From: Chiloscyllium plagiosum
Lineage: Eukaryota
Length of the DNA: 64,000 bases
Assembly (NCBI RefSeq): GCF_004010195.1
Contig: NC_057718.1
Span: forward strand, 83,250,345-83,314,344
Direction: 5' to 3'
Below are positions 19,362 to 62,745 of this stretch, in pieces (the first letter of the stretch is position 1; each line of letters starts with the position of its first letter). The notes under the pieces are model-generated. The model made no database searches, was not told where the DNA came from, and saw only the letters and a program-made list of their open reading frames with translations. A program made the translations under genes and the position numbers.

Positions 19362-19606
19362 AGCTACCCCACCAAGAGTCAATGAGCGTGGTGCTGGAAA
19401 AGCTCAGCTGGTCAGGCAGCATCTGATGAGCAGGAGAGTTGACTTTTCAAGCATAAGTTCTTCCTGATGAAGAGTTTATGCTCGAAACGTTGATTCTCCT
19501 GCTTCTCGGATGCTGCGTGACCGGCTATGCTTTTCCAGCAGAACACCTTTTGACTCCGATCTCTAGCATCTGCAGTCCTCACTTGCTCCCAGCTTTACCA
19601 ACAAGA
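19362..19606. repeat. Palindromic Penelope-derived element with hammerhead core
   Basis: Inverted arms; CTGATGA-AGAGT ttat GCTC-GAAACGTT at 19464-19491; degenerate flanking direct repeats. Confidence 0.7.
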
Positions 19607-20270
19607 CCTATCGTGCAGTAAGTTGGGAAAAAAAGTCCTGGGCAACTTGAACATTGTTAGAATTGTGCACACTAATTAAGGAACTGTCAAAATCACAATC
19701 CCAATTGAATTTAACAACCATACTTCAATTAATGAATGATTCTACTGATCAGGACCAGATCATTTGATTGCGGTACCACCTTCCCAAATCAAAAAATACA
19801 CCTTTAATGGATGACTAAGAAACATCACTATTTATGGAGAACCTGACTGCACAAACTAGTAATAATGATTATTAATATTCTAATTTACTTTTAAATGAAC
19901 TCCGATAATTGTAACTACTTTAAACACGGTCTTCAAAGATTACCCACTACTCATTTTCTAGGCACTAATACTTTAATTTTACTTATCCACACACCCAAAT
20001 GCAAAATATCTGTTGCAGCAAATTTAATTTATTCAGTATCAAAATCTACAATGTATTAAATATAACTCAGTCCAACCTGTTTCCTTATGCATTTTCACTA
20101 CCTGACAGTAGATTGAAAACCTAGCTTTCTTTTATAAATATAAAATGAAGTGTAATCTTTTCCTCGAACTTCCGTCCAATGCAAAAGTGAAATGAAAATC
20201 TGTTTTGAAGATATTTAGCAATACAAAATGAGTAGATTGTTACTGCAGCAGCAGCATCATGTTTACTAAC

Positions 20271-20326
20271 CTGTCAGAGCCTAAAAGTTTGAAGATTCTT
20301 GAATTATCGCATATTTCTTGTGTAAT
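20271..20326 (-). CDS. MAP4K3: MAP4K3 exon (CNH domain)
   Basis: ITQEICDNSRIFKLLGSD(R); AG/GT, 56 bp. Confidence 0.95.
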
Positions 20327-20962
20327 CTAGACAAAAAAATACATTTCCAGGATTAATTAGCAATACATTTACAACATATTAACAGACTTGGTCCTCAATT
20401 ATGTTAGGACATATCAAATTTGACAGTTTAATATTGAGAGTAAATAACACTTAGAATTCTCATAATGGAAAACCTAGTCTTGTTCTAGAATGAAACAAGA
20501 CACATTGTGTCTTGTTCAACAATCCAATAGGGATAATCAAACAGAAAGTAAATTGGAATAATCCAAACATGCACCATCATACTGATCCTTGTGGCAAATG
20601 TTAATATGGAAATAAATATATCTAATGAAAGTCTATTCCATTGATAAATACTATTCTCACTGGGAAGAGGCTGGAAACTATAGAACACTCTCTAAATATT
20701 GTTAACTCAACACTATTTAGAGTGGCTTGAGCTTCCATTTGTATTTAGTTTGTAATGTCAAATTATTATCAATCAAAAGGCTAGTTACAATACTTAAAGT
20801 TGCAGATGAAAACTATGTTCCTTGTAAAAATTTTGGCCACTGCATGGACCTCCAAGGTCCATGTACTACAGCAGCTTCTTGAAGAATGTCAATCTGCTTA
20901 CGTAAATCCTTCAGCCACACAGTTTAGAGAGAACATTGGATGAGAATATTTATGACTTTTAC

Positions 20963-21033
20963 CTCATTTGACTTAAAACTTCTCCCCTGCATTCCATGTT
21001 TCCAGAAAGCAAGAACACTATCCTGTAAACAAA
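20963..21033 (-). CDS. MAP4K3: MAP4K3 exon (CNH domain)
   Basis: (V)[23 protein letters not shown]; 71 bp. Confidence 0.96.
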
Positions 21034-21411
21034 CTAAAAAAAGGAGAAATACAAGTTGTCTGCTGAATGCCAACTGGCAAGATCAATCCATAAACAGTCA
21101 AAACCAAAATGGCATTAACTATTAGGTTTCAACAATGTTTGAGATATAGATTAGCATTACAAAACTATACAGAAATACATTTTAAAACATAGCGAAGCCA
21201 CTCACAGTGAGATGACATACAACCTTTTTGAACACCACACACTCTCAGCATTGTGTTTATGTCATATTAGGGGGCAACTCAAAGAAGCCAATTCCAGTTC
21301 ATTGTTTTTCACCAATCAGCTGCCAAATGGAATGCTTTGATTTCAGGAGTAATATCTGATCACCACATGGCAAAAAACTCTCCTGTGAAAATGTAGAGTC
21401 CTTATAACTGC

Positions 21412-21700
21412 CAGTGGTTAGCACGCTGCCTCACAGCGCCAGAGACCCGGGTTCAATTCCCGCCTCAGGCGACTGTCTGTGTGGAGTTTGCACATTCTCC
21501 CAGTGTCTGTGTGGGTTTCCTCCGGGTGCTCCGGTTTCCTCCCACAGTCCAAAAATGTGCAGGTTAGGTGAATTGGCCATGCTAAATTGCCTGTAGTGTT
21601 AGGTGAAGGGGTAAATGTAGGTGACTGGGTCTGGGTGTGTTACGCTTCGGTGGGTTGGTGTGGACTTGTTGGGCCGAAGGGCCTGTTTCCACACTGTATG
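21412..21700 (+). mobile_element. tRNA-derived SINE (V-SINE/HE1-like)
   Basis: A box remnant GTGGTTAG, B box GGTTCAATTCC, V-domain TGTGGAGTTTGCACATTCTCCC and CR1-like tail. Confidence 0.88.
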
Positions 21701-21702
21701 TA

Positions 21703-21915
21703 ATTGTGGAATTCATTGCCACAGAGTGCAGTGGAGGCTGGGACACTAAATGTCTACAAGGCAGAGATTGATAAATTCTTGATGTCACAAGGAATTAAGG
21801 GCTACGGGGAGAACGCGGGTAATTGGAGTTGAAATGCCCATCAGCCATGATTGAATGGCGGAGTGGACTCGATGGGCCGAATGGCCTTACTTCCCTCCTA
21901 TGTCTTATGGTCTTA
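21703..21915 (+). mobile_element. CR1 LINE 3' end
   Basis: GATGGGCCGAATGGCC..TCTTATGGTCTTA tail. Confidence 0.75.
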
Positions 21916-21999
21916 ATACATCTGAAAGCCAGTGATAACCAATAAAAATCTGAGGATAAGCAATATAATTATAATTTGTGCATCATTCATACATTTTAT

Positions 22000-22850
22000 A
22001 TATTGGAGTGAACAAAATGCAAAAAAAAAAATTGTATAGTACCCTGTTGCTGCACTTGACAACTTGTATACATAAAACATATTTGGGGCAATGACGTGCC
22101 CAAGGCACTTTGCAAAAGCATTGCAACAGCATTGTAAAACAAAATATGACACTGAGCCATATAATGAGATATTTGACCAATATTTTGGTGATTTGAGCTA
22201 AGCAGTTTTAAGAAAGGTCTAAAAGGAACAAAGTGAAGTACAAAGGTAGTCAAATGTAGGAGAAGTAATCCAGAACTTGGGATTTAGGTAACTGAAGGCA
22301 ATGGTTATTGATGGTGGGATGATTAAAATCAGGATCTTTTGGACACTAGAATTAGCGGGGCACAGACACCATGCTGGAGATATAAGGAATTAAGAAACCA
22401 TGGGCAGATCTGAAACTGAACATTGCTTAAGGTGGAATGAATGTAGGTCAGTGAGCACAGGTTAAGTTGTAACAAATGACTGAAGAAGTTGACAGCAGAG
22501 CTTTGGATAATCTTACATTTAAGGATGGAATGCGAGATAATAGCCAAAGGTGCATTGAAACGATCAAGTCCAAAGGCAACAAAAGCATAAGAGAGTTTCA
22601 GTAGCAGGTCAAGTGAGATGGGGGCAGCGTTATAGAGGTAGAAATATGGAAGTCTCAGAATTGACGGATATACAATCTTGGTGCTCTTCTAGGGCATCTG
22701 ATGTGATACCGAAGCTGTGAACAAACTATTTAATCTTCGATCATTATCGGGAAGAGATGGAGTGAATAGAAAGGGAATGGAGTCTGTAGTGGGAACTATA
22801 AATTATCACAAAGTCTCTGTTCACCCAGTGCCGGATGCTAGTTCAGGATT
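22000..22850 (-). mobile_element. L2-like LINE relic, old
   Basis: Decayed L2-type 3' end (CCCAAGGCACTTTGCA) and degenerate ORF2-like sequence. Confidence 0.45.
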
Positions 22851-25800
22851 CAACAGTCAAGAGGTGAGAGTGAGGACCAGAGGGCTGCTGGGAAGGTGAG
22901 TTGAAACCATTTAAAAAAAAAAAAACTTACCTTGGGTGTCAGGGCCTCCATTTGTCAAGAGGTGAGAACGAGGACCAGAGGGCTACTGGGAAGGTGAATG
23001 AAACCGTTTTATTTGGATAGTGGCTGAATCAGTGACACTACACGTTTAGTGTCTCCCACCTGCCCTCCTCCTCTAACAAAAACAACAGTCTTACTTAAGC
23101 TAAGACTAAAGCTAAAGTTAAGGTTGAAAATGGCAGGAGATCTCAGACCCATGTTCAGCTCCTCTTGCTCAATGTGGGTGCTCAGGCATACAGCTGATGT
23201 CCCTGGCCCTTTCACGTGCAGGAAGTATGTCCGGTTGCAGCTGTTGTTAGATCGCATGACGGCTCTGGAGCTGTGGATGGACTAACGTTGGACTATACAT
23301 GATGCTGAGGGGGTTGTGGATAGTACGTTTAGTGTTTTGGTTGCACTGCAGATTAAGATTGTTGAGGGACTGGGTGACCAAAAGGCAGAGAAAAAGAGCA
23401 GAAAGGCAGTGCAGGTACCCCTGCGGTTGTCCCCTCCTAAACAGGTATACCGTTTTGGATGCTGTTGGGGGAGATGGCTCACCCGGAGAAGATAGCAGTA
23501 GCTAGGTTCACGGCACGGTGGCTGGCTCTGCTCTACAGAAGGGCAGGAAAAGAAAAGTGTGGAAGGGCTATAGTCATAGGGGATTCAATTGTAAGGCGGG
23601 GGAGGGGGGTGAGATAGGCAGTTCTGTGGTTGAAAACAAGACTCCCAAATGGTATGTTGCCTCCCAGGTGGATGGGTCAGGGATGTCTCAGATCAGCTGC
23701 AGAACATTCTCAAGGGGGAGGGTGAACAGCCAGTTGCCGTGGTGCATATTGGCACGAACAATATCAGTCAAAAACAGGATGAGATCCTACAAGCAGAATT
23801 TAAGGAGCCAAGTTAAAAAGTAGGAGCTCAGAGGTAGTAATCTCAGGATTGCTACCAGTGCCACGTGCTAGTCAGAGTAGGAATGTTGAATAAGCAGGAT
23901 GAATGCATGGCTTGACAGATGGTGCAGGAGGGAGGGGTTCAGAGTTTTGGGACCGGTTCTGGGGGGAGGTGGGACTATTACAAATTGGATGGTCTCCACC
24001 TGAGCCGAACTGGAACCAATGTCCTTGGGGGCGCTTTTGCTAATGCTGTTGGGGAGGGTTTAAACTAATGTGGCAGGGGGATGGGAACCAAATGAGGAGG
24101 TTAGTGAACAGGAAGGAGGTAGCAACTAAAGTCTGCAAGGAACTAGATAATGAAGTCAGCGTGACTAAGGGGAAGTGGAGGTAGGGAGCAGATGATGAAT
24201 GCAAAGGGACTGGTGATCTGAGGTGCATTTGTTTTAATGCAAGAAGTGCAGTAGGTAAAGCAGATGACCTCAGGGCTTGGATTAGTACCTGGGAGCATGA
24301 TGTTATTGCTAGGACTTAGACTTGTTTAAGGGAAGGGCATGATTGGCAATTAAATATCCCAGGATATCAATGCTTCAGGCAGAATAGAATAGGAGGTAAA
24401 CGGGTGGAGGAGTTGGATTACTAGTCAGAGAAATTATCACAGTTGTGCTGAAGGAAGACACTATGGAGACTCAAGCAGTAAGGCAATATGGGCAGAGCTC
24501 AGAAATAGGAAGGGTGCAATAACAATGTTGGGACTGTACTACAGGCCTCCCAACAGCAAAAGTGAGTTAGAGGTGCAAATATGTAAACAGATTATGGAAA
24601 GATATAAGAGCAACAGGGTGGTGGTGATAGGAGATTTTAATTTTCCCAACATTGACTGGGATTCACTTAGTGTTAGAGGTCTACATGGAGCAGAATTTGT
24701 AAAGAGCATTAAGGAGGGTTTTCTAGAGCAGAATGTAAATAATCCAACTCGGGAAGGGGCCATACTGGACCTGGTGTTGGGAAATGTGCCCGGCCATGTG
24801 GTTCAGTAAGGGATTACTTTAGGAATAGTGATCACAATTCCATAAGTTTTAGAATACTCATGGACAAAGACAAAAGGAAGAGTGCCAACTATACCAAAAT
24901 TCGGCAGGAGCTAGGAAATGTAGATTCAGAGCAGCTATTTGAAGGTAAATCCACATTCGATATGTGGGAGGCTTTTAAAGAGAGGTTGATTAGAGTTCAG
25001 GAAAGTTATGTACCTGTGAAAATGAAGGATCGAAATGGCAAGGTTAGGGAACCCTGGATGACAGGTGAAATTGTGAGACAAGCTAAGAGGAAAAAGGATG
25101 CGTACATAAGGTCAAGACTACTGAAGACAGACAAAACTTTGGAAGAATATCGGGAATGTAGGACCAATCGGAAATGAGGAATTAAGAGGCTAAAAGGGTT
25201 ATTAGATATCTTTAGCAAACAGGGTTAAGGAAAATCCCAAAGCCTTTTATTCATATATAAGGAGCAAGAGGGTAACTAGAGAAAAGGTTGGCCCACTCAA
25301 GGACAAAGAAGGAAAGTTATGTGTGGAGTCAAAGAAAATGGGTGAGATTCTTAATGAGTACTTAATGAGTACTTAATGAGTATTCACCGAGGTGAGGGAC
25401 ATGATGGATGTTGAGGTTAGGGATAGATGCTGGAGTACTCTAGATCAAGTCAGTAGAAGGAGGGAGGATGTTTTGGGTATTCTAAAAGGCATTAAGATGG
25501 ACAAGTCCCCAGGTCCGGATGGGATCTACCCCAGGTTACTGAGGGAAGCAAGAGAGGAAATAACTGGGGCTTTAACAGATATCTTTGCAGCATCCTTGAA
25601 CATGGGTAAGGTCTTAGAGGACTGGAGAATTGCTAATGCTGTCCCCGTGTTTAAGAAGGGTAGCAGGGATATGCCGGGTAACTATAGATCGGTGAGCCTG
25701 ACGTCAGTGGTAGGGAAGCTGCTGGAGAAGATACTGAGGAATAGGATCTATTCCCATTTGGAAGAAAATGGGCTTATCAATAATGGTCAGGGAAGGTCAT

Positions 25801-27462
25801 GTCTTACAAACCTAATAGAATTTTGAGGTGGTGACAAAGTTGATTGATTGAGGGGGAGTGCTGTAGATGTAATATACGTGGACTTTAGTAAGGCATTTGA
25901 TAAGGTTCCCCATGGTCGGCTGATGGAGAAGGTGTCGCACGGTGTCCAGGGTGTTCGAGCTAGATGGATAGAGAACTGGCTGGGTAACAGGAGACAGAGT
26001 AATAGTCGAAAGGAGTTTCTCAAAATGGAGACCTGTGATCAGTGGATCTAGGGATCCATGCTGGGACCACTGTTGTTTGCGATATATATAAATGATTTGT
26101 AGGATGGTTTCAGTTGCCTGATTAGCAAGTTTGCAGATGACATCAGGATTAGTGTAGGGGGTAGCAGATTGTGAAGGGGACTGTCAGAGAATACAGCAGA
26201 ATATAGACAGATTGGAGAGATGGGCAGAGAAATAGCAGTTGGAGTTCAATCCGGGTAAATGCGAGATGATGCATTTTGGAAAATTCAATTCAAGAGCAAA
26301 CCGTACAGTAAATGGAAAAGTCCTGGGGAAAATTGATATACAGAGACATCTGGGTGTTTAGGTCCATTGTTCCCTGAAGGTGGAACGCAGGTCAGTAAAG
26401 TGGTCAAGAAGGCATACGGCTTGCTTTCCTTCATTGGATGGGGTATTGAGTACAAGAGTTGGCAGGTCATGTTACAGTTGTATAGGACTTTGGTTCGGCT
26501 GCATTTGGAATACAGTAAACTCCTGAAGAAGGGTTATACCCGAAATGTCAACTTCACCGCTTCCTGCATACAGTTCTGGACACCACATTGCGAAAAGGAT
26601 GTGGATGCTTTGGACAGGGTGCAGAGAAGGTTCACCAGGAATGTTGCCTAATATGGAGGGTGCTAGCTATAAGGAGAGTCATAGAGTTGTACAGCATGGA
26701 AACAGACCCTTCGGTCCAACCTGTCCATGCCGACCAGATATCCCAACCCAATCTAGTCCCACCCACCAGCACCCGGCCCATATCCTTCCAAACCCTTCCT
26801 ATTCATATACCCATCCAAATGCCTCTTAAATGTTGCAATTGTACCAGCCGCCATCACATCCTCTGGCAGCTCATTCTATACACGTACCACTCTCTGCGTG
26901 AAAAAGTTGCCCCTTAGGTCTCTTTTATATCTTTCCCCTCTCACCCTAAACCTATGCCCTCTAGTTCTGGACTCCCCGACCCCAGGGAAAAGACTTTGCC
27001 TATTTACCTTATCCATGCCCCTCATAATTTTGTAGGTTGAATAGATTAGGATTATTTTCATTCGAAAGACAGAGGTTGAGGGGGGAACCTGATTGAGGTC
27101 TACAAAATAATGAGACGTATAGACAGGGTGGATATCAAGAATCTTTTTTCCCCAGAGCGCGGAACTCAATTACTGGGGGTCACGTGCTCAAAGAGAGGGG
27201 AAAGGTTTAGGGGAGATATGCGTGGAAAGTTCTTCACGTAGAGGATAGTGGGGGCCTGGAACACGTTGCCAGCAGAGGTGGTAGAGGCAGGAACAATTGC
27301 ATCACTTAAGATGTATCTAGACAGATACATGAATGGGCAGGGAGCAAAGGGATACAGATCCTGAGAAAATAGGTGGCAGGGTTAGATAGAGGATCTGGAT
27401 CGGCGCAGGCTTGGAGGGCCAAAGGGCCTGTTCCTATGCTGTAATTTTCTTTGTTCTTAGTT
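22850..27462 (+). mobile_element. Near full-length CR1 LINE (5'UTR, ORF1, ORF2), decayed
   Basis: ORF1 has a Cys-finger (~23130) and SGNH esterase motifs VIGDSIVR (~23573) and DGLHL (~23988). ORF2 has YRPPN, GDFNFP, KSPGPDG, DFSKAFDKV and FADD. Ends in a TTCTTTGTTCTT tail. Confidence 0.93.
26678..27033 (-). mobile_element. Younger CR1 3' fragment inserted antisense into the CR1
   Basis: YKIMRGMDKVN..RGHRFRVRG..RGNFFTQRVV on the minus strand; the host CR1 resumes at AGGTTGAATAG. Confidence 0.85.
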
Positions 27463-27654
27463 TAGCTACAACAGATAAATTGAGGAAAGTGGTGACAAGA
27501 TACAGCTGCTTTTTTGAACATGTCACTGAGGGACAGCATACTGTGATACTGTAAACTTCAAAATTTTAATCAGTGTTCAGGGATCCTAAGAATCAGAAAT
27601 AACACTTTCTGGAATAAACTGTTTCCTGAGTTGAAAGGGACAAGAAGAAACAGT

Positions 27655-27865
27655 TATAAAGGAATTAAAGACAAAAAAAAATGGAATCCAAAGTAAACAA
27701 GCAGGAGGCTCAAAAAGCATAGCAAACCAGGCAGCATCAGGAGGTGGAGAAGTTGACAAGTAAACTCCTGAAGGGTTATACCCGAAATGTCGACTTCACC
27801 ACTTCCTCATGCTGCCTGGCTTGCTATGCTCTTCCAGCCTCCTGCTTGTCTATAAAGGAATTAAA
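27655..27865. repeat. Palindromic Penelope-derived element with 15-bp target duplication
   Basis: TATAAAGGAATTAAA at 27655-27669 and 27851-27865; inverted arms; eroded hammerhead core. Confidence 0.8.
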
Positions 27866-28479
27866 AGGAAATGCCAATTCACCATCATGGGGAAGGAGTC
27901 AAAGTATCATAAAAACAAGCTGTTTCCTGGAAGACAGGAGGTAACAACTGACGATAATCTGCTGCCTTGTGACAAATGGGCAAGCAATACTTCCTACAGA
28001 AGGAATGTCCTGAGGCGGAGGGGTTAATTGCATGAAAGTGCGCTTCAAACAAACCGCTAATAATGAATGTAAGGAACAGGGAAGTTAATCCTAAGAAGGA
28101 GGCAAGCTACAGACTTGATGACTCCAGAAGTGTAATCCAAGATGTGGATGAATGTATCATCAATAACATCACACTGGAAACTTCAAGACAGAAAATTCTA
28201 CAAGAATTCAACTTAAGGATTCTTCAGTGGCTGAACTGCAGAGAACAGCATGCCACAAGGATCGAACCCTGGACATTCAGAGACAGATGCTGTTAATTGG
28301 AACTGTAGCTAAATTCCAACATTAGTTGGATAATAGCTAAGTTAAAACGTGAGGGTTAACTTACTTACTTGAATGGTCTTATTTTGGTTGCTACATGCAA
28401 TAAAATTTAAGTAATCGTTTCAGTATTTGATTGAGATTTCTTAACAAATACTCAATTTAAAGGTAGCTTGTCGTAATTT

Positions 28480-34059: not shown

Positions 34060-34265
34060 TTGGTTGTGCTGATACGAATTACAAATAACGAAATCTGCAT
34101 ATCCCACAACAGTAAAAACATCCATCCCAACCCTTACCCACTACCCCCCTCAGCCCTGTGTCTTGTTTTCCCACTTCATCTAACAAAGGAGCACTGCTCC
34201 GAAAGCATGTGATTTCAAATACACCTGTTGGACTATAACCTGATGTGTGACTTTTGACTTTTTCC
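34060..34265 (+). repeat. Penelope-like 3' terminus fragment of a second family, decayed hammerhead
   Basis: CTAACAAAGGAGCACTGCTCCGAAAGC..ACACCTGTTGGACTATAACCTG. Confidence 0.55.
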
Positions 34266-34302
34266 CAGGACAAATTATTATCAATCCAGATTTTTAAGAA
34301 AT

Positions 34303-37836: not shown

Positions 37837-39277
37837 ACCTCTTATATTTTCTTGCATTTAGTAACTAACAAACTCACTGTTTTTTAAACTCAGGAAAGCC
37901 TGGTTAAATTGGCTTGTTGTTTTAAAAACGAATATATTTGGGCTGGGAAAAGTTAGGCACATGGGAAGGAATTTTTTCTTTCAATTAACCTTGTTGTGGC
38001 CAATCAAGGGAGGGATGAGTAAAGAAGAGGAGCCAGTACATCCCCCCTCACTAAAGAGCATAACCTTCTGGGAATATCCTATTTGGAATCAGAACTAACG
38101 CAGATCCTCATCCAGAGACCAGTCATGACAAGAATGGAGCCAGTTAAGTGCAATCTCATTCAACTGGACAACAGTGAAGATTTTGGAGGAGTTTGATGTG
38201 ATCAACAGTGTCAAAGACTGCAGACAGGTTCAGAACAACAAGGGAGACGGTTCACTTTTGTCAAAGTTACATAGGATGTAATTTGTGATACTGATTAGCT
38301 ATTTTGGTACTAGGGCAAAGGTGGAAACGTCAGGGATTTAAACACTAAATGTCTGAGAAATACAGCTTTTTTCAAAATTGGAAAAGGTATACAATGGTGT
38401 TCCCCAGGGAAACCTACAAGGACTGCTGTTAGAAGCCAATTAGGAAGGGTGAACCGAATCCATTCCTTGTCCCACTTCTCCACTGGTTACAACAAAGTTC
38501 AAGTTTAGAGACAGAGAGGTGATACTACCAATTACAGTATACATATGTCAGACTGTATACAGACATAAGTCAGCCAAGTTTTAAGTAAAAAATGAAGAAC
38601 CGGTTAATTGCAAACAAAAACTTATTCAAGCAAAGAGATAAAGATTAGTAACAAAGATTTAACATATAATTACCCTTCTTGCAAAATAATAAACACAGTC
38701 TCCAAGGTTAGAGAAAAAATAAAAACTCCGAAGAACATTATTTTAAAAGTATTTTAACATCAAGAAAAAAAACAATTACAGATGTTTGTATATTATTCAA
38801 ACTTTGGTCAATGGCCAAAGTCATTTTGCACATGAACTACAGATAGTGGGGGCCTTATAGCTGACTTTCCTGCAGACAGTGCTGTAGATTTTGAATTTGA
38901 CTTTAGGAGAACTTTATTGCTTTAGGAAGACTTGACTTGCAGTGATGAGACCTTCTAGTAAGTTCCTATCTCTCATATTTTGAAGACAGGCTGGATTTCA
39001 GAGAAAAGAGGGGGCAGAGCCTGATGTTCCAGGCAAGTTCTCCCTCTGAGTCACCGGACAGAAAACTCTGCTTTTTCTACACAGATGCTGCCAGAATCTG
39101 CTCAGTTTTCCCATCAATTTCTGATTTTGTTTTTGATTTCCAGCACCTGCAATTCTTTGGTTTTTACATTCTCCCCCTGGATGTGTTAAAATTCACTAGC
39201 TTTATTATATGTTCAAACTGGGTCATGTGACCTCTGAAAGTTTTGTTAACACAGTGACTGCATGTGAGAGCCATGTA

Positions 39278-46793: not shown

Positions 46794-48417
46794 GAACATA
46801 GAATATCGAACTATACAGCGCAGGACAGGTCCTTTGGCCCTTGATGTTGCGCCGACATGTGAACTATTCTCAGCTTGTCCCCTACACTATCCCATCATCA
46901 TCCAAGGATTGTTTAAATCTCCCTAATGTGGCTGAGTTAACTACATTGGCAGGTAGGGCATTCCACACCCTTACCACTCTGAGTAAAAACCTGCCTCTGA
47001 TATTTGTCTTAAATCTATCACCCCTCAATTTATAGTTATGCCCCCTCATACAAGCTGACGTCATCATCCGAGGAAAAAGACTTTCACTGTCTACCCTATC
47101 TAATCCTCTGATCATCTTGTATGTCTCTATCAAATCTCCTCTTAGCCGCCTTCTTTCCAATGAGAACAGATCCAAGTCTCTCAGCCTTTCCTCATAAGAC
47201 CTTCCCTCCAGACCAGGAAACATCCTGGTAAATCTCCTCTGCACCTTTTCCAATGCTTCCACATCCTTCCCAAAATATGGCGATCAGAACCGTACACAAT
47301 ATACCAAGTGTGGCCACAGTAGCGTTTTGTATAGTTGCAGCATGATATTGCGGCTCCGGNNNNNNNNNNNNNNNNNNNNNNNNNNNNNNNNNNNNNNNNN
47401 NNNNNNNNNNNNNNNNNNNNNNNNNNNNNNNNNNNNNNNNNNNNNNNNNNNNNNNNNNNNNNNNNNNNNNNNNNNNNNNNNNNNNNNNNNNNNNNNNNNN
47501 NNNNNNNNNNNNNNNNNNNNNNNNNNNNNNNNNNNNNNNNNNNNNNNNNNNNNNNNNNNNNNNNNNNNNNNNNNNNNNNNNNNNNNNNNNNNNNNNNNNN
47601 NNNNNNNNNNNNNNNNNNNNNNNNNNNNNNNNNNNNNNNNNNNNNNNNNNNNNNNNNNNNNNNNNNNNNNNNNNNNNNNNNNNNNNNNNNNNNNNNNNNN
47701 NNNNNNNNNNNNNNNNNNNNNNNNNNNNNNNNNNNNNNNNNNNNNNNNNNNNNNNNNNNNNNNNNNNNNNNNNNNNNNNNNNNNNNNNNNNNNNNNNNNN
47801 NNNNNNNNNNNNNNNNNNNNNNNNNNNNNNNNNNNNNNNNNNNNNNNNNNNNNNNNNNNNNNNNNNNNNNNNNNNNNNNNNNNNNNNNNNNNNNNNNNNN
47901 NNNNNNNNNNNNNNNNNNNNNNNNNNNNNNNNNNNNNNNNNNNNNNNTAAGTCATTTATAAAAATGACAAATAGCAATGGTCCCAAAACAGATCCTTGTG
48001 GTAACTGGACTCCAGGCTGAATATTTTCCATCAACCACCACTCGCTGCCTTCTTTCAGAAAGCCAGTTTCTAATCCAAACTGCTAAATCACCCTCAATTC
48101 CATGCCTCTGAATTTTCTCCAACAGCCTACCATGTGGAACCTTATCAAAGGCTTTACTGAAGTCCACGTATACCATGTCAACTGCCCTACCCTCATCTAC
48201 ATGCTTGGTCACCTTATCAAAAAACTCAATCAAGTTTGTGAGACACGACCTGCCCTTGACGAAACCATTTTGACTATCTGAAATCAACATGTTGCTTGCT
48301 AGAGGATTATAAATCTTATCTCTTATAATCCTTTTCAAAACCTTTCCTACAATAGAAGCAAGCCTCACTGGTCTATAATTACCTGGGTCATCCCTACTGC
48401 CCTTCTTGAACAAGGGT
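46794..48417 (-). mobile_element. Young CR1 LINE 3' portion spanning the assembly gap
   Basis: NYRPVRL, DFSKAFDKVPH and PQGSVLGPLLF before the gap; LEKVQRRFTRM..RGDLIETYK after it. Confidence 0.92.
47360..47947. other. Assembly gap (588 N)
   Basis: Run of n. Confidence 1.
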
Positions 48418-49959: not shown

Positions 49960-52190
49960 GGAAAATTTCCATCCTGATCTGGTTTGGCCAACATATGACT
50001 CCAGACCAACAACAATGTTGGCCTTACCTGCCCTTTGAAAAAGCTAGCAAGCAACCCAGCTGTATCAACCATTAGAAAGTCTCAAAACAACAATGAAACC
50101 CAATAGACTGGCATCAATTAAGGCACTGGAAATGACAACAGCAAACACAGCCCGATTGAACCTGCAAAGTCCCTACTAATTGGGGATTACATTGGGAGAA
50201 CTGTCTAACAAACTAGTCAAGTAACAGCCTGGCTTATGGAATCATGATTATGATGTAGTTGTGTATAATGTATGTCCTGTTCTACCAACATGACAGATCC
50301 AGCACGGTGGTGTACAGTTGGTAGGGATACATCCTGGAAGCCCTCAACGTTGATTCCAAACACCATTAAGTGTCATGGCCTCAGGTCAAACTTGGGGAAG
50401 AAAACCTCTTGCTGATTATCACTCACTGTCCAACTTCAGTTTACAAATCTGTACACCTCCACATTGAATGTCACTTGGACGCAGGATGGAGGACGCACTC
50501 TGGGCAGGGACTTCAATGTCCACCACCAGCAAGAGTGGTTCAGCAGCAGCACCACTACTGATCAAGAGTCCATTAGCTCAGTTAGCTGGATGTCTGACTT
50601 GCAATGCAGAATGACGCCAACAAAATGGGTTCAATTCCTACACTGAGGTCCCAACTGAGGTTATCACTTCTTGACATTTCCCCTTGCCTGAGGTGTGATG
50701 ACTCTCATATTAGGAGAAAGTGAGGACTGCAGATCCTGAAGAAGGGCTTATGCCCGAAACGTTGATTCTCCTGCTCCTTGGATGCTGCCTGACCTGCTGC
50801 GCTTTTCCAGCAACACATTTTTCAGCTCTGACTCTCATGTTAAACCATCATCAGTAGTTTCTCTCTAGTGACAGAGCAGACCAGATAATGGTGGCTTTAC
50901 CTTACAGACTGAACTAGTAAAGTACTAAATGAGATAGCTGCTTGACTGAAACTGTGGCAAGTGATGAGAGAGAGCAAGCTACGGGAAAAATAAAAATTTG
51001 ACCTCATCCTCACCAATCTGTCTGCTACGGAAACATCTGTCCATGACAGTATTGATCAGTGTGGCCACTGCAAAGCTCTTGTAGATGCAATGTCCCACAT
51101 TCATATTGAGAATACCTTCCATTGTGCTGTGGCACAATCACAATGCTAAATGGAACAGACTTTGAATTGGTCTCGCAAATAAGGACTGGGCATTAGCCCA
51201 ATCTATAACCTCATGACCTGGAATATCCCCACTCTAAATCATCATCAAGCCTAGGGATCAACACTGGATCATAGAAGAGTGCAGGAGGGCATGCCAGCTA
51301 GTTTTAGGCAAACCCAAAAATGAGGTATCAACCTGAAGCCATAAAACAGGACCACTTGCATGCTGAACAGCAAGTGACAGACAGAGCGAAGAAGAAATCC
51401 TACAACCATCAGATCAGATCTACGCTTTGCAGTTTTGTTACATCCAGTCATGAATGGTGGTGGACAATTAAACAACTCACTGGAGGAGGCTGCTCCACAT
51501 ATATCCCCACCCCCAATGATGGGGGAGCTCAGCATATTAGTGCAAAAGATTTGGAACAATCTTCAGCCTGAAGTGTCAAGTGGATGATCTATCTTGGCCT
51601 CTTCCAAAGGTCCCCAACATCACAGACGCCATCCTTCAGCCAATTCGATTCACACCATGACATCAAGAAATTATTAGGAGACACTGCACACTGCAAAAGA
51701 TGTGGGCCCTGACAACATTCTGGCAATATTACTAAAGACTTGTACTCCAGAACTTGCCACACCCTTAACCAAGATGTTCTAGTACAGCTCAAGCACTGGC
51801 AAATACCAGACAATGTAGAAAATTGTCCAGATACGTCCTATACACAGAGAACAGGACAAATTTAACTTAGCCAATTACTGTCTCATTAGTCTACTCTCAA
51901 TCATTAGTGTGGAAAGTGTCAACAGTGGTAAAAGGTAGTACCTGCTCAGCAATAATCTGCTCACTTTGGGTTCCAGTTTACATTCTATAAGGGTCACCTG
52001 GTTCCTGACCTCATTACAGGCTTAATTCAAATGTGGACAAAAAAGACGAATCCCAGAGGTGGTCAGAGTTAGAGCTCTTAAAATCAAGTCTGCATTTGTG
52101 GCATCAAGAAGCACTAACAAATCTTAAATCAAGGGGAGTCATGAGAATAGGGTTCAGTAACTGTCAGAGGTCAGTTAGCTCAGTCCCAGA
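49960..52190 (+). mobile_element. CR1-superfamily LINE (second family), decayed, with nested inserts
   Basis: GxDFNVHHxQEW endonuclease motif, EWWWTIKQLTGG and GPDNI. Confidence 0.75.
50699..50842. repeat. Penelope-derived hammerhead element with 14-bp target duplication
   Basis: TGACTCTCATATTA / TGACTCTCATGTTA; core at 50736-50763. Confidence 0.8.
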
Positions 52191-55652: not shown

Positions 55653-55911
55653 CTATTTTAAAGTTTTTAAAAATGTGTTGCTGGAAAAGCGCAGCAGGTC
55701 AGGCAGCATCAAAGGAACAGGAGAATCGACGTTTCGGGCATAAGCCCTTCTTCAGGAATGAGGAAGAAGGGCTTAAGAAGGGCTTATTCCCGAAACGTCG
55801 ATCCTCCTGTTCCTTTGATGCTGCCTGACCTGCTGCGCTTTTCCAGCAACACATTTTTAAGCTCTGATCTCCAGCATCTGCAGTCCTCACTTTCTCCTAT
55901 TTTAAAGTTTT
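55653..55911. repeat. Palindromic Penelope-derived hammerhead element with 15-bp target duplication
   Basis: CTATTTTAAAGTTTT at 55653-55667 and 55897-55911; ~85-bp inverted arms; core on - at 55728-55755. Confidence 0.88.
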
Positions 55912-56129
55912 CCCAACAGCATGAGCTACATGCCCTACAAGGAACAAAGTCCCATCTCTGTTCAGGTGCAACACATTTGGTTTGTACAGATGCCATCTTT
56001 TCTAGAGCCAATCTTAGCATCCCAGGAATCTAGAACCCTCCCTCGTGCATCATCTTTCCATCTTCGCATTCATCTGCCTTATGCTCCTATTTCTGTACTC
56101 ACTTGCTTATTGCAGAGAGTAATCTGGAG

Positions 56130-57365: not shown

Positions 57366-57516
57366 ACTCTTGCTTTAAGAGCTAATCTTGTAAAATACTA
57401 CACAAGTTGTAAAAAGCTCTATACATGTTGCAAAGAAACATTTCTGTCTCTCATATGAAAGAACTGTTGAAGTGGTTTACATGATTTCAGATATCAAGAA
57501 GTTGTACAAAACTTAC

Positions 57517-57577
57517 CAGATATTGAAAGCAATGCATTGTTCATTACATACAGCCATGTACACCTCCTTTGGACTAG
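57517..57577 (-). CDS. MAP4K3: MAP4K3 exon (CNH domain)
   Basis: LVQRRCTWLYVMNNALLSIS; 61 bp. Confidence 0.95.
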
Positions 57578-57800
57578 CTAAAATAAAAACAAACACAGTG
57601 AGCAGTTTAAAGCTTAAACTGAAAAGATATACTCCTCCCCTCAGAAAGTCAAGCTAATTTGTTTGATCTATTTGAATACACAACTAACTTTCAAGTAGGA
57701 TTCTAGGAAGTACATCAGCAAGATACTTTTCACTGATCTAAGGAGGAATTAAATGTTAAGCATTGCTTAGAATAAAAGAAACTAAAAAAATGAAGTTTAC

Positions 57801-57880
57801 CTGCTCCATTGATGTTTCATGTAATTCATTAAGGTTTAAAGTGTAAATGCCTTCTTCAGCACCAAATATAAGGTACTGAT
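57801..57880 (-). CDS. MAP4K3: MAP4K3 exon (CNH domain)
   Basis: (D)[26 protein letters not shown]; 80 bp. Confidence 0.97.
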
Positions 57881-57958
57881 CTAAAGAAAGTAAATAACTA
57901 AATTAGAATGCAAAAGGACAAAAATGTCTAATTTTTTAGTTCCAGAAATAACAATTAC

Positions 57959-58043
57959 CTCTAGTGTCTGGATTAATCCATGATGTTGCACAGTGAATTT
58001 TCAGAGGGCAACCATTGAAAACCTTAGAGAAACAAGCACCCAT
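57959..58043 (-). CDS. MAP4K3: MAP4K3 exon (start of CNH domain); no further upstream exon found in the window
   Basis: [28 protein letters not shown]; 85 bp. All 12 exons join in phase. Confidence 0.97.
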
Positions 58044-59649
58044 CTGGGAAAAAAAAATGATTTGAAATTATTTAAAATAGCACTGCATTGGTTACTTTAC
58101 ATGATAGGATTGCAAAATAAAAAAACACACCAGCAGACATTCTCTTTTCAATGACAGCAGGGCTGTTTAATCTATATAGAAGGGCTATTTTACTGAATCT
58201 GTTCCTCTTTTTACTTACAAAGATCAAACATTTCACAACGATATACCACCATAAATAACGCACAACTTTCTTAAATAGCAATCACACTACTGTAATAATT
58301 GTAAGATCAAACAATGATAGGAAATGTGAAATAGGAAATTTTAAAACTACAGCCACGGCAAAAGTCTTTTGCAGTTAGTGTAGTTTAATTCTCATCCACC
58401 ATGCTCGGACCATGCGTTACAGCATGTTACTGGTTAAATGGTCACTTCTGTATTTGGACTCCTACAACACCTACTTCCAGCTTTTACCTTTTTTGGCTGC
58501 AAATTTATTTGATAGTGTGGTATTACCACCTAAAAAAATCAGAACAGAATAATATGAACTACATTCCCATTTAAAACTTGCTGCTTACTTCACATCAAAT
58601 TTTATATTTTCGTTAGAAATGATACATTTTGATGATTTTTCATTACTATCAAAATCTGCAGATTCTGGACCAGTACCGTGTGTTTCGCAATTTGCTATTA
58701 TATGAACTTTCAGCAAAGCAGTGTTGAAGGGTTTCTCATTTACAGTCGTCCTTCAGGTCTTTTTACATTTACTCAGGTTCTCCAAGAATAATCCTGTTCC
58801 TTCTTCAGCCATAATCCAACCTTTTTGCATTCAATTAAATTCCATGGATCACAACTAGTCCAAACAACTTCCAGTCCCCTCAAAACAAAATAACAAATCA
58901 CATCTAAAATCTCCCTCAGGAAGGAAATCCAACTCATAATTAATCAAATTTTTGACGGACAAATTTTTTCACGCCTCTCAAAGCTAATAAACAATTATCA
59001 GCTCCTCAATGGACACAATCACTGTTTATTTCTATCTTATCAATGTCCTTTATTTTCTCAAACGTCCAACTGAAATCCGCATCCTTTCATTTCCATTGTT
59101 TATATTCAAAACCTTGAGCTGTTCTCTCATGTCAAAAACAGTCTTAATCTTCAACTGCTTTCACGTCCCTTTGAAGACCACTCTGCATTTTAACATTTTG
59201 CTTGGAGTCCTAGCCCTAGGATATAAGATAAAGACTAATATCTAATTGAAACTTCACAACTCTAGCTGTTGTTGACCTTACATTTTGTTCTCTGTTTAAT
59301 TGTATTATTATGGTGATCAATTCTCTGAACAGCTTGAGTTCTTCTAAAATGGAATTAGATGAGCAAAGTCACACACTTCCTCTGTTGAATCTTCACTTTC
59401 ATAATCATTCTTTCCCAGGTCCTCAAACTGCTTCTAATGCAATTATGTCATTTTTAAAATGAGACCAAATCTATAAACTGTACTCCAGATATTGTCTGAC
59501 CAAACCCTCGTACAGTTACAGTAAGACTTTCCCGTGACAATCTATTCCCTCTGCAATATTTAATTTCCATTCATTATCATTGCTATACCATGTGATGCAA
59601 TCAAACTTTTTTATATTCATTTGTACTGTTAAGGCACCCATCAAAAATA

Positions 59650-60014
59650 CAGAGGAACCTCGATTATTTAAATATCGGATTATTCAAAGGAGATCTCAAG
59701 ACCCCCATAGAAACATTACATCAAAGATGCAATTCCAACATTGATAGTGTCTTGTTTATAGTGATTAAAAGTGAACTCGGTTTACTGAAATGCTGCCGAG
59801 AACAGTCCTGGACATCGATGGGAGCCCAGGCACCATCTCCAAATGACTGACCTCCTTCCCCCTCTCTCTCCCCCGCAACACTTTCCCTGGAGTTCTACAC
59901 AGGCGTGTACCCTAAACCCCCTTCCTCAAATAATCTCTCCAACATTGTCCTGTATAGGGCAGAGGTGGAACTTGTCAAAAAAGTTGCAGTAAAAAGGTGT
60001 GTGTGTGCGTGTGC

Positions 60015-60070
<56 letters not shown>

Positions 60071-60344
60071 CCCTCCCCTAAAAGGCAGCAGCAGTCTTGT
60101 CGTTGGTATCCAGTCCCGCTGCCTTGGAGAGGGGGTGGAGGCAGGCAGGGCAGATAGAGCTGGGGGACAGTGTCAGATGGAGTCTCGCGCACGGTGTGCT
60201 GCTGCCTTGTCTCCTGAGCGGGGAGCGGACTTAACAGGAAACTCAGAGCCCCAGAGGAAAGGCTCTGAATCAATTAACCGAATAATCAATTATCCGAACG
60301 AAATGGTGGCCGCCCATCTTGATTGGATAATCGAGGTTCTTCTG
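59650..60344. mobile_element. Tc1/mariner (Tigger/pogo-like) MITE, long form
   Basis: TIRs CAGAGGAACCTCGATTAT / ATAATCGAGGTTCTTCTG flanked by TA; internal (GA)n at 60017-60070. Confidence 0.88.
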
Positions 60345-60480
60345 TAGTCCATAAAATTTCTGGTGACGAGCTGATCCATCGGTTGCAAAATTCGACTGTT
60401 CAAAAGGCTGCCTTTAATCCTACCAAGGATGTAATGACAGTAGAACTTATCACAAGGTTTCCTATAATGTTGCCTCTAAA

Positions 60481-60722
60481 CTGCACTATCACAGGAGAAA
60501 GTGAGGACTGCAGATGCTGGAGATTAGAGCTGAAAATGTGTTTCTGGAAAAGCGCAGCAGGTCAGGCAGCATCCAAGGAGCAGGAGAATCGACGCTTCGG
60601 GCATGAGCCCTTCTTCAAGACCTGAAGAAGGGCTCATGCCCGAAACGTCGATTCTCCTGCTCCTTGGATGCTGCCTGACCTGCTGCGCTTTTCCAGCAAC
60701 TCATTTTCTGCACTATCACAGG
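60481..60722. repeat. Palindromic Penelope-derived hammerhead element with 15-bp target duplication
   Basis: CTGCACTATCACAGG at 60481-60495 and 60708-60722; core at 60622-60649. Confidence 0.9.
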
Positions 60723-61337
60723 GTCTACATAAGCCACTGACATGTGAACGCATTGCCTTCTCGTTCCAGAAATTACCATGTCTCAAGGTCTGTTCAGCGG
60801 CACACAAAAAAAAGGGAACGTAGGTTTCTCATAGGTCACTCAATAGTTCAAGAGTTATTGAACAGTAAGTTCAACAGAGGTAGTTGCAGGAGTGGATTTC
60901 TATCTTGGGCAACTGGTTAATGAAGTGCTTAGGAGCAGCAAAAAGATATTCCCTCCCTAAACAATGCTGCTGTAGAAGGATCCAAGTAGTCAGGACTCAG
61001 AGGAAGCCTTGAGAATAAGCAGATGCATCTCAGTGTTTGGTTTAGGGCTCAGGAAAATTTCTGGGAGCTATCAGAGAATGGACGAGGCCCTTTTCAAATG
61101 AATAATTCAGTAACACAGAACTGGGGAAAGAAGCCCCAAGCAATATTTGCTTGATGGAACTGAGTAAGATAAGAGCTTAAGAAATGCAAGGTAGCACTGG
61201 CTTTTTACAAAATAAAACTGATGTTGAACTGCAAGTAGGTGCTGGAATGCAGTTTCAATAGTCTACAGAATTGTAGTTCCTAGAAGAGGGTGAAGTACTA
61301 GAATATGAGCAGTCATTCAGGTAATCTGTGATGGAGT

Positions 61338-62745
61338 AGTATTTTGGATTAGTGGTGCTGGAAGAGCACAGCAGTTCAGGCAGCATCCGAGGAGCAGTAA
61401 AATCGACGTTTCGGGCAAAAGCCCTTCATCAGGAATAAAGGCAGAGAGCCTGAAGCGTGGAGAGATAAGCTAAAGGAGGGTGGTGGTGGGGAGAAAGTAG
61501 CATAGAGTACAATAGGTCAGGGAGGAGGGTGGAGTGGATAGGTGGAAGAGAAGATAGGCAGGTAGGACAAGTCATGGGAACAGTGCTGAGCTGGAAGTTT
61601 GGAACTAGGATGAGGTGGGGGAAGGGGAAATGAGGAAACTTTTGAAGTCCACATTGATGCCCTGGGGTTGAAGTGTTCTGAGGCGGAAGATGAGGCGTTC
61701 TTCCTCCAGGTGTCTGGTGATGAGGGAGCGGCGGTGAAGGAGGCCCAGGACCTCCATGTCCTCGGCAGAGTGGTAGGGGGAGTTGAAATGTTGGGGCCAC
61801 AGGGCGGTGTGGTTGATTGGTACGGGTGTCCCAGAGATGTTCCCTAAAGCGCTCTGCTAGTCCAGTCTCCCCAACGTAGAGCAGACCACATCGGGAGCAA
61901 CGGATACAACAAATGATATTAGTCGATGTGCAGGTAAAACTTTGATGGATGTGGAAGGCTCCTTTAGGGCCTTGGATGGAGGTGAGGGAGGAGGTGTAGG
62001 GCGCAGGTTTTGCAGTTCCTGCGGTGGCAGGGGAAGGTGCCAGGATGGGAGGGTGGGTTGTAGGGGGGGCGTGGACCTGACCAGGTAGTCACGGAGGGAA
62101 TGGTCTTTGCGGAAGGCGGAAAGGGGTGGGGAGGGAAATATATCCCTGGTGGTGGGGTCTGTTTGGAGGTGGCGGAAATGTCGGCGGATGATTTGGTTTA
62201 TGCGAAGGTTGGTAGGGTGGAAGGTGAGCACCAGGGGAGTTCTGTCCTTGTTGCGGTTGGAGGGGGTGGGTCTGAGGGCGGAGGTGCGGGATATGGACGA
62301 GATGCATTGGAGGGCATCTTTAACCCCGTGGGAAGGGAAATTGCGGTCTCTAAAGAAGGAGGCCATCTGGTGTGTTCTATGCTGGAACTGCTCCTCCTGG
62401 GAGCAGATACGGCGGAGGCGGAGGAATTGGGAATACGGGATGGCATGTTTGCAAGAGGTAGGGTGGGAAGAGGTGTAAGCCAGGTAGCTGTGGGAGTCGG
62501 TGGGGTTGTACAAAATGTCAGTCTCAAGTCGGTCGCCACTGATGGAGATGGAGAGGTCCAGGAAGGGGAGGGAGGTGTCAGAGATGGTCCAGGCAAATTT
62601 AAGGTCAGGGTGGAATGTGTTAGTGAAGTTGATGAATTGCTCAACCTCCCCGCGGGAGCACGAGGTGGCGCCAATGCAGTCAACAATGTAGCGGAGGAAG
62701 AGGTGGGGAATGGTCCTGGTGTAATTAAGGAAGATCGACTGTTTT
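61338..62745 (-). mobile_element. Penelope-like element, 5'-truncated (end of RT, thumb, GIY-YIG endonuclease), frameshifted
   Basis: YIVDCIG (catalytic YIDD region mutated), PTDSHSYL..HP..AIPYSQFLRLRRICS and CTSTNIICCIRCSRCGLLYVGET. Confidence 0.92.
61405..61432 (-). ncRNA. Minimal hammerhead ribozyme motif in the Penelope terminus
   Basis: CTGATGA-A-GGGC tttt GCCC-GAAAC-GTC: intact CUGAUGA and GAAA boxes, helix II and GUC cleavage triplet. Confidence 0.7.

Follow-up and report, generated by a model that had tools for sequence, protein, structure and literature searches.

Short palindromic insertions in a shark genome: probable dead-end integration products of an endonuclease-bearing Penelope-like element

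Introduction

In a 64,000-nt stretch of Chiloscyllium plagiosum DNA (the window), one end of a Penelope-like element (PLE) recurs as short head-to-head palindromes built around a hammerhead core. Are these stubs a mobile family of their own, defined by the ribozyme, as a preliminary description of this DNA had proposed, or are they left behind by the integration of the coding element? We consider them to be probably the latter, that is, dead-end products of an endonuclease-bearing (RT plus GIY-YIG) PLE rather than a separate mobile family, formed by two-ended priming at a staggered cut of about 14 nt. PLE integration is itself still open, as the sole active in vitro system leaves the later steps unvalidated in the available text of its report (PMC11167929).

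Results

Copies in the window and their coding relative

Element positions are counted from the C of CTGAnGA (+1), which places the predicted cut after +28 and the tail end at about +126. The features are the following.

15161..15255, minus strand: single-arm stub; arm of about +60 to +126 at 15169-15236, 11/12 repeat, 7-nt filler
19361..19606, no strand assigned: old two-armed copy, degenerate repeats; inverted arm without tail (about +7 to +94) at 19375-19460, arm with tail (about -3 to +126) at 19461-19589 on the plus strand
26518..26566, plus strand: 49-nt piece matching the right arm of the 27655 copy, with its variants but without its 3-nt deletion
27655..27865, no strand assigned: second-subfamily copy with two arms between exact 15-bp repeats; the left arm starts at about +24 and has a partial tail and a T-run, the right one spans about -10 to about +87 and its core is disrupted by a 3-nt deletion
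34170..34260, plus strand: terminus of another PLE-like family, now decayed, with a GGAGC/GCTCC stem and a core that is not intact
50699..50842, no strand assigned: copy with non-overlapping arms, 13/14 repeat; 22-nt tail end (+126 to +105, 50713-50734) opposite an arm of -1 to +94 (50735-50829)
55653..55911, no strand assigned: two arms within an exact 15-bp repeat; the inverted arm, without tail, covers -10 to +88, the arm with the tail starts at about +5, and the junction has a 10-nt duplication
60481..60722, no strand assigned: two-armed copy, 15-bp exact repeat whose last 2 nt are shared with the element end; tail-bearing arm of -2 to +126 on the minus strand (60494-60620), tail-less arm of -1 to +86 on the plus strand (60621-60707)
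61345..62744, minus strand: 5'-truncated, frameshifted coding PLE; C-terminal part of RT, linker, GIY-YIG region, then hammerhead and a tail-less end
61405..61432, minus strand: minimal hammerhead in the coding copy, with CTGATGA, an additional A, a GGGC/GCCC stem and GAA-ACGT-C (compared with PMC4209133)

The five dispersed two-armed copies of the preliminary description (19362, 27655, 50699, 55653 and 60481) are thus borne out, as is its fragment at 15161. Their arms are 88-93 nt long and 77-97% complementary at 19362, 55653 and 60481, and 77% complementary over 164 nt at 27655. The piece at 26518 sits inside a CR1/L2-like repeat with no convincing TSD at the locus, and is probably a local templated insert; the 34180 end has no sequence match to the other window copies.

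The proposed PLE origin is also supported. The 3' end of the coding copy, which contains RT and GIY-YIG sequence, is 83-88% like the main stubs. This copy reaches 84-86% against Chiloscyllium punctatum RT proteins and matches P0004 over 433-800 (tblastn, E 1.5e-68), a protein with RVT_1 and GIY-YIG Pfam matches, each slightly below the curated cut-off; Pfam gave no match on the two window reading frames alone. Comparison with the N-termini of longer homologues did not reveal the start of the shark ORF.

Flanking repeats

The direct repeats, described earlier as 14-15 bp long and specific to each locus, are exact over 15/15 positions at three loci (27655-27669/27851-27865, 55653-55667/55897-55911 and 60481-60495/60708-60722) and match at 13/14 at 50699 (50699-50712/50829-50842); at 19362 the repeat is degenerate, as had been noted (13/17, 19361-19377/19590-19606). 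In a null of 294 random window pairs the best score was at most 10. The three exact loci score 15, against 10 for 50699 within the zone searched and 6 for 19362, so that 19362 alone is not above chance. Because 1-3 bases of each repeat are found in the element end too, we put the true stagger at about 12-15 nt, and the stereotyped ~15-nt stagger with inversion suggested earlier is supported at about 14 nt. As to the remark that long uniform TSDs are not well established for PLEs, TSDs of 8-10 bp are published (PMC3846280), and no statement of a 13-15-bp mode was found in the literature searched; older PLE-structure papers outside it may give TSD lengths.

Does this anatomy extend beyond the shark? 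We collected at least 117 short metagenome loci, chosen for centres within 24 nt of cores, and none contains a PLE ORF; both points count against two-ended priming. Repeats of 10-18 bp flank 29 of 47 two-armed loci in these unrelated contigs (median 14, null 1/600, among the matches listed). Both here and at the three exact window loci, the repeats are far above the null. In one unselected family of another animal (G001), 3/3 loci have a 13-bp repeat and a one-sided tail, and one of them bears GIY-YIG coding sequence. The shark-specific core pattern gave 0 matches in metagenome contigs, and an invertebrate-family core pattern 0 in viral contigs; the two-arm pattern gave 11 in prokaryote genomes, of which one, L123 (animal-like DNA in a MAG), has both arms long.

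An empty site for 60481 was sought in a second species (organism B), where the insert is present with both junctions; no empty flank was found among paralogues within the window, and no TSD at the coding copy at 61405. The presence in organism B and the missing empty flank count against two-ended priming. They would also suit long inverted PLE insertions that lost their centres later, or repeats that existed beforehand. Long perfect palindromes are unstable, and long inverted-arm copies do exist (L129, L137). This explanation is nevertheless very improbable, as the repeats are specific to each locus and lie far above the null, young copies with arms 95-97% complementary are already short, and the sharp step at -1 to -10 with flat depth upstream (see below) would be left unexplained.

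Tail asymmetry and junctions

A difference between the arms had been overlooked. A 30-40-nt tail is clearly present on one arm and absent from the other in four of the five window copies, and in the fifth one arm is 28 nt longer. Among the matches listed, 28/29 repeat-bearing metagenome loci, from 22 families, have a one-sided tail (median offset 35 nt, chance 0.18 per locus), and 0/29 are flush on both sides, where independent start choice would give about half. Stub anatomy, a TSD plus a one-sided tail, is general across families.

The 5' ends of the two arms lie at -1/-2 in 60481, about +5/-10 in 55653, -1/+105 in 50699, about -3/+7 in 19362 and about -10/+24 in 27655; that an arm starts within a few nt of the core is true of at least one arm per copy, not always of both. 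Palindrome centres and junctions differ in all five copies, which indicates that the palindrome is rebuilt at each insertion. The stubs share with EN+ PLE insertions the one-ended 30-40-nt tail, the inverted 5'-truncated head-to-head copy and the link to an ORF with RT and C-terminal GIY-YIG, and they do not show the single internal structure, inherited from a master, of a SINE- or MITE-like self-propagating family. The centre comparison covers the five two-armed copies.

Could one arm be a copy of the other? Self-priming on an antisense template has been proposed for inverted PLE junctions (PMC3846280): one cDNA, begun at the tail end, would reach the RNA 5' end, snap back and copy itself to the tail boundary, with resolution by the endonuclease. 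Private variants common to both arms at 55653 (two diagnostic variants) and 60481 also fit such a fold-back and count against two-ended priming, and the 55653 junction (3-nt microhomology plus templated duplication) and the small hairpin-compatible spacers at many metagenome centres agree with it. Second arms of only 12-22 nt that start at the core in several metagenome loci (e.g. L023, L034, L070) look like fold-back and speak against two-ended priming. Nevertheless, at 50699 and at recurrent joints, seen in three DNA runs between an arm of variable length and an arm starting at about -1 to -6, the arm with the core includes sequence that the tail arm lacks, and such non-overlapping arms cannot arise by one arm copying the other. 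Moreover, L129 has a long arm without the tail and a short arm with it, and the loop-less centres of 8/117 metagenome loci (among the matches listed) fit two annealing cDNA ends, not a hairpin. Fold-back would also need an extra rule to halt exactly at the second start site, and we regard it as unlikely.

The hammerhead

The earlier claim of a shared core with a paired helix II stands in part: the minimal core is intact at 55755, 60622 and 61432, and decayed at 19464 and 50736, where the cut triplet reads GTT, and at 27765, where the 27655 copy is broken by its 3-nt deletion (AAATGTC). The 34180 stem, taken earlier for helix II variation, belongs to a different family whose core (CTAACAA...GAAAGC) is not intact, and is therefore not covariation within the main family. 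The 61405..61432 hammerhead has all the features of a minimal PLE hammerhead (core, bulged base, G10.1-C11.1, palindromic 15.2-16.2 and paired helix II), with only two adjacent Watson-Crick pairs in helix I. The identification as a minimal hammerhead is strengthened by 85 distinct cores from other contigs: among the matches listed, helix II reaches at least 4 bp in 61/85, vs 6.8% in shuffles, and begins with G in 76/85. An Rfam search gave no hammerhead match, only chance miRNA and snoRNA matches. Predicted folds of monomer arms contain helix II without a stable hammerhead (z +0.4 to -2.1), and the palindrome as RNA is predicted to form one hairpin of about 85 bp (-169 kcal/mol, z -23) that sequesters both cores. 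The arms retain the core portion 5' of the predicted cut, so the template RNA was uncut.

Ends in sequencing runs

A scatter of breakpoints random relative to the core was to count against the preliminary description. In this genome, loose-end analysis of sequencing runs shows 5' ends piled up about 1-10 nt upstream of the core; their consensus agrees only to about -10, and overall agreement is 0.32-0.37 in contig runs. Depth steps at about 61436, from 35-102 raw RNA reads over the ORF to 753-893 per arm bin, and in contigs from 0.3-3.4 M to 3.7-8.1 M, and is flat further upstream. Part of this step may be due to subfamilies whose upstream sequence has diverged by more than 15%, and unique flanks are over-counted in contigs. 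From the clustering we lean slightly towards a template RNA that begins about 1-10 nt upstream of the core. An Inr-like TCATTC at -6 to -1 was rejected as proof of an RNA start, being low-information and absent in the 27655 subfamily. RNA reads showed no begin or end piles, a weak test in a single-cell polyA library. No RNA editing is claimed, as A>G and T>C counts rose together with most other change types.

In G001, by contrast with the shark, 5' ends range from beyond -720 to +45 with no clustering at the core, so a ribozyme-defined self-propagating mini-element is not supported. A gap-length test for clustering across the metagenome loci gave p about 0.05, too weak to use; it drew on 46 loci that are not independent, after removal of the near-duplicates L072 and L085. 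Neither "ribozyme-defined" nor "separate mini-retroelement" is supported, given cores copied uncut, G001 ends not clustered at the core, five different centres and a predicted hairpin that would sequester the cores.

One form of self-propagation deserves separate mention. A non-coding unit of about 136 nt (-10 to +126) could multiply as a retrozyme-like RNA, with head-to-tail dimers that self-cleave and circularise and the PLE RT copying one turn, giving a fixed 5' end. Head-to-tail joints (+126 to about -1/-4) do exist (54 contigs in X13, 15 in X9, 10 in X2, 2 reads in X21), element ends are more numerous than ORF sequence, different families conserve helix II, RNA reads of the tail bin and of the ORF bins have opposite strand bias, and tandem retrozymes have been argued to derive from PLE pLTRs (10.64898/2026.07.22.740005). 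However, each run has 431-797 loose ends at these same positions, against which the joints are few, and PLEs normally produce partial tandems; tandems with a hammerhead per unit are absent from the window, and genome-wide the joints are a minority. No end pile at +29 appears among the six top loose ends listed per run in four runs. Helix I is limited to two adjacent pairs, cleavage by minimal hammerheads is poor even in dimers (PMC4209133), palindromic copies are predicted unable to fold the ribozyme, and 5' ends are not fixed in G001. Furthermore, in Anolis the first 172 nt of the ORF are required (PMC11167929) and by analogy the stubs would end near ORF nt 120, without downstream sequence needed for activity. 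We hold this unit to be decidedly unlikely.

Discussion

How would two-ended priming build a stub? Judging from the repeats, the enzyme would nick both strands about 12-15 nt apart, the 3' overhangs becoming the TSD. Reverse transcription would begin from both 3'-OH ends, with the tail end (+126) as start site for one and an inner site (+86 to +96) for the other, and these different start sites would leave the 30-40-nt tail on one arm only. Each cDNA would run toward the RNA 5' end, and the cDNA ends would be joined bluntly, by microhomology or by short templated filler into a head-to-head palindrome whose centre is new in every event; the variety of junctions behind this step is observed in the copies. 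A tail-primed cDNA stalling near the second primer would give an insert of the 50699 type. In the shark family most cDNAs would stop about 1-10 nt upstream of the core by run-off at the template RNA start, reverse transcription having begun near the RNA 5' end, and the hammerhead would be copied uncut, as a passenger. The stagger and the paired use of start sites are deduced from sequence footprints, and in the Anolis system the start site did not, in bulk, differ between strands (PMC11167929), which counts against paired use.

A stronger version would make PLE integration an obligatory two-ended reaction across animals, with a protein dimer cutting about 14 nt apart and two cDNAs copied from fixed sites of one RNA; the shark RNA would be a hammerhead-cut circle of about 136 nt (-10 to +126), one turn of which would fix the 5' end, and the stubs would descend from a minimal replicon of retrozyme type. 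Its two-ended part is well supported; the whole is quite unlikely.

The stubs themselves are an ordinary, very abundant by-product. As compact footprints, they yield two sharp predictions: nicks about 12-15 nt apart, and different RT start sites for the two DNA ends in each event. If both are true, inverted pLTRs, the one-sided tail and the TSD follow from one reaction without antisense self-priming.

Among known systems, 50699 has the exact geometry of L1 twin priming. There, the second DNA end primes a second cDNA, giving an inversion inside a TSD of about 15 bp; this is the outcome in a minority of cases, internal priming is variable, and the segments do not overlap. In the stubs, unlike L1, the second cDNA starts at a fixed place and overlap between the arms is usual.

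The closest published relatives are the EN+ PLE insertion units with inverted pLTRs (PMC3846280, PMC8557442), which share the head-to-head inverted 5'-truncated copy, the tail of 30-40 bp at one end, the TSD and the palindromic junctions. The stubs differ in consisting of two end pieces only (117-230 bp), in 5' ends clustered at the hammerhead, and in repeats of 13-15 bp vs 8-10 bp in Adineta PLEs (PMC3846280); in their available text, both papers invoke self-priming or EN resolution, not two-ended priming. Animal non-LTR retrozymes (10.64898/2026.07.22.740005) are likewise non-coding, with a type I hammerhead and a PLE pLTR origin, but form head-to-tail tandems with a hammerhead per unit, whereas the stubs are dispersed head-to-head pairs.

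The core resembles the minimal hammerheads of metazoan PLEs (PMC4209133) in its CUGAnGA core, extra base before G10.1, G10.1-C11.1 pair and palindromic ACGU for a dimer helix III, and differs in a helix II of 4 bp and a helix I of 2 bp. Those hammerheads are mostly solo, and opposite-strand pairs 100-700 bp apart were noted already; TSDs and arm asymmetry, described here, are not met in the consulted parts of that paper.

Finally, in Anolis carolinensis Poseidon (PMC11167929) the hammerhead also lies about 110-120 nt upstream of the RT start, a resemblance of layout only. In vitro, both strands are cut and extended, two start sites bound the tail, uncut RNA serves as template, 5' truncation of the template shortens the product, and hammerhead mutants leave insertion unaffected; the accessible text gives no stagger length or paired start-site use, and its Supplementary Fig. 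S2 (genome coverage of the template RNA) may already show the 5'-end clustering. In conclusion, the literature already describes inverted pLTRs, tails on one side only and hammerhead pairs on opposite strands, and the rule that joins TSD and tail across families is a useful addition to them.

Anatomy of the stubs in the window

The five palindromic Penelope-like element (PLE) end stubs of the preliminary description, named by their start (19362, 27655, 50699, 55653 and 60481), are real, each consisting of two arms joined via their 5′ ends. The ~15-bp flanking repeats described as target site duplications (TSDs) are borne out at 27655, 55653 and 60481 (15/15) and at 50699 (13/14), whereas 19362 offers only 13/17 and, taken alone, does not exceed chance. 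The best score in 294 random window pairs was at most 10, against 15 for the three exact repeats. As 1-3 bases of each repeat double as matches to the element end, the stagger would be ~12-15 nt.

Positions are numbered from the C of CTGAnGA (+1), with the predicted cut after +28 and the tail end at ~+126. The forward arm had been said to start within a few nt of the hammerhead core; at least one arm per copy does begin within ~10 nt of it, but the partners begin at ~+5, +7, +24 or +105. The core of 27655 is broken, and 34180, cited as a further example of helix II, belongs to another, decayed family. An asymmetry between the arms had been overlooked: one reaches the tail end (+126) and its partner stops at +86 to +96, which is clear in four copies, and at 27655 one arm exceeds the other by 28 nt. 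This difference is the 30-40-nt PLE ‘tail’ described in PMC3846280 and PMC8557442.

A GATGCTGCC motif near +45 is retained across all PLE-end subfamilies. Older, related PLE ends at 14759-14831 and 39066-39155 have no recognisable core or TSD. The right arm of 27655 has a 49-nt copy 1.2 kb away, within a CR1/L2-like repeat (26518-26566); this copy predates the loss of 3 nt from the core of that arm and looks like a local templated insert.

Coding copy and other features

Judged from its sequence, the coding copy (61345-62744, minus strand; hammerhead at 61405-61432) is a truncated, frameshifted, endonuclease-bearing PLE. Its reverse transcriptase (RT) fragment (61860-62744, minus strand) shares 84-86% identity with Chiloscyllium punctatum proteins and 67% with a Stegostoma protein, which marks the window as shark-like. 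The alignment to P0004, a full-length homologue whose Pfam matches to RVT_1 and GIY-YIG both fall slightly below the cut-off, covers 61644-62744. No TSD was found at the flanks of the coding copy in the window. The remaining features are:

3202-10147, plus-strand frames: retrovirus-like element with ~600-bp terminal repeats, 93-97% alike and 6.35 kb apart
10246-10716, minus strand: second RNase H-like frame, just beyond the retrovirus-like element and opposite to it
~47360-47950: assembly gap of 588 N
~57800-57880, minus strand: short exon bearing splice signals

The retrovirus-like element has broken frames for RNase H, integrase and an env-like product (the env label given by eye), and its left repeat overlaps an element at 1-3330 (minus strand) which, from its translation, we take to be an L1/Tx1-like LINE remnant. 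Tandem duplications of 38, 105 and 118 bp lie inside the latter, and a Pfam search of two of its frames gave no matches. The peptide of the short exon may correspond to a MAP4K3/5 CNH-domain exon, so the nearby stubs probably lie in introns of a host gene.

Depth and joints in reads

Reads over 60150-62850 were surveyed in one contig set and one raw RNA run of organism A and two contig sets of organism B, a second species. Depth is high across the ~130-nt PLE end, drops at ~61436 and is flat over 1.3 kb of ORF (753-893 RNA reads per bin in the arm vs 35-102 in the ORF; contig depth 3.7-8.1 M vs 0.3-3.4 M), a step that divergent subfamilies and contig fragmentation may inflate. Loose ends at 60621 and 61436 resemble each other only as far as ~-10. 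Among the joints listed (15 of 1928), arms of variable length are joined to an arm starting at ~-1 to -6, and head-to-tail joints are carried by 10, 15 and 54 contigs of the three sets and by 2 reads. The six leading loose-end places of each run include no pile of ends at +29, and the reads showed no pile of RNA begins or ends. An empty site for 60481 was sought in organism B without success; both insert junctions are present there. Strand bias in the raw RNA run is ~2.5:1 for the tail bin (60423-60513) and ~2-6:1, towards the opposite strand, for the ORF bins (61515-62697).

TSD and tail across families

We searched metagenomes for pairs of head-to-head cores separated by 0-24 nt, fixing the centre and leaving TSD and tail free. 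At least 117 loci were recovered, probably in animal DNA. Of the 117 listed, 48 had two arms and sufficient flank; the remaining 69 were one-armed, too short in flank or duplicates. A direct repeat scoring at least 10 was found in 30/48, against 1/600 cross-locus pairs. After removal of one near-duplicate, 29/47 keep a repeat of 10-18 bp (median 14), lengths that include microhomology and at most one mismatch. In 28 of these 29 listed loci the palindrome abuts one repeat directly, with 24-56 nt (median 35) separating it from the other, a one-sided layout whose chance is 0.18 per locus; in none does it abut both. Among the matches listed, the 29 span 22 sequence families, and none clusters with the shark arm. 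No PLE ORF was found within the 117 short loci listed. One 23-locus family (L004 and 22 alike) fitted the pattern mostly via its own upstream sequence, not a second arm, and has a 21-nt spacer that hardly varies and contains a palindrome, plus a second CTGATGAA.

The same pattern gave 11 matches in 596 Gb of prokaryote genomes. One of them, L123, had two arms; it lies in animal-like DNA of G001, which is catalogued as a bacterial MAG. Contigs of this genome (C18, C41, C51 and C64) carry microsatellites together with PLE coding fragments and hammerhead stubs, and most likely represent contaminating DNA of an animal host. A single-arm search of G001 yielded six matches at five loci. In this small, unselected sample all three members of one family (L129, L132 and L134) are two-armed with a one-sided tail and 13-bp repeats; L129 bears GIY-YIG coding sequence. 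L133 has a 13-bp repeat with one mismatch, and none was seen at L131, inside a microsatellite. The 5′ ends of the arms lie beyond -720/+45 (L129) and at -31/+17 (L132) and -57/+28 (L134). Thus, in these few loci, TSD and tail asymmetry hold and pinning of the 5′ ends to the core does not.

Hammerhead and mechanism

Helix II pairing is widely kept in the metagenome loci: among the matches listed, 61/85 distinct cores form at least 4 bp vs 6.8% of shuffles, and each position shows five or six kinds of pair, by a simple count that ignores phylogeny. The proposed ribozyme-defined mini-element is unsupported: the core sits 5′ of the cut site, so that the hammerhead is copied uncut, the palindromic stub transcript folds as a single long hairpin, and the G001 5′ ends are not pinned to the core. 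In Anolis, ribozyme mutants insert normally in vitro and the product shortens with the template 5′ end (PMC11167929). Given uncut copying, the single hairpin and these Anolis results, the shark 5′ pile-up would most simply reflect RT running off at an RNA start that lies immediately ahead of the core; it may also stem from an exonuclease stop or from a short circular template.

That work also reports, in vitro, a tail bounded by two RT start sites and a protein that cuts and extends both strands (PMC11167929). If the two 3′ overhangs left by a staggered cut both prime, head-to-head arms would result, the RNA-3′ end of each attached to one repeat copy. The strict one-tail rule then implies that the two DNA ends use different start sites within each event. 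Private variants common to both arms (55653, 60481) are compatible with a single RNA having been copied twice, with strand displacement. At 50699 the tail arm ends 11 nt before the start of the other arm, which would fit a stall, and loop-less centres (8/117 loci listed) would fit the annealing of two cDNA ends. Fold-back of one cDNA, which would also invert the arms, still explains some cases, namely some very short second arms.

Comparison with known systems

The window stubs are genuine and abundant, and they belong to a known kind of PLE stub. Much of their anatomy is already in print: PMC3846280 covers inverted PLE terminal repeats (pLTRs), tails on one side and TSDs of 8-10 bp; PMC4209133, minimal hammerheads both solo and on opposite strands; PMC2377424, an internal promoter in D. 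virilis together with copies flanked by TSDs; and PMC8969392, inverted pLTRs as a feature used in curation. The window repeats (15/15, 13/14 and 13/17) differ from the 8-10 bp of PMC3846280. In the portions of the literature consulted, neither a 13-15-bp mode nor the paired use of start sites was stated; older papers or supplements may contain either. L1 twin priming is a comparison system. The rule seen across families, a ~14-bp TSD combined with a tail on one side, adds modestly to the picture of PLE mechanism and can be tested directly.
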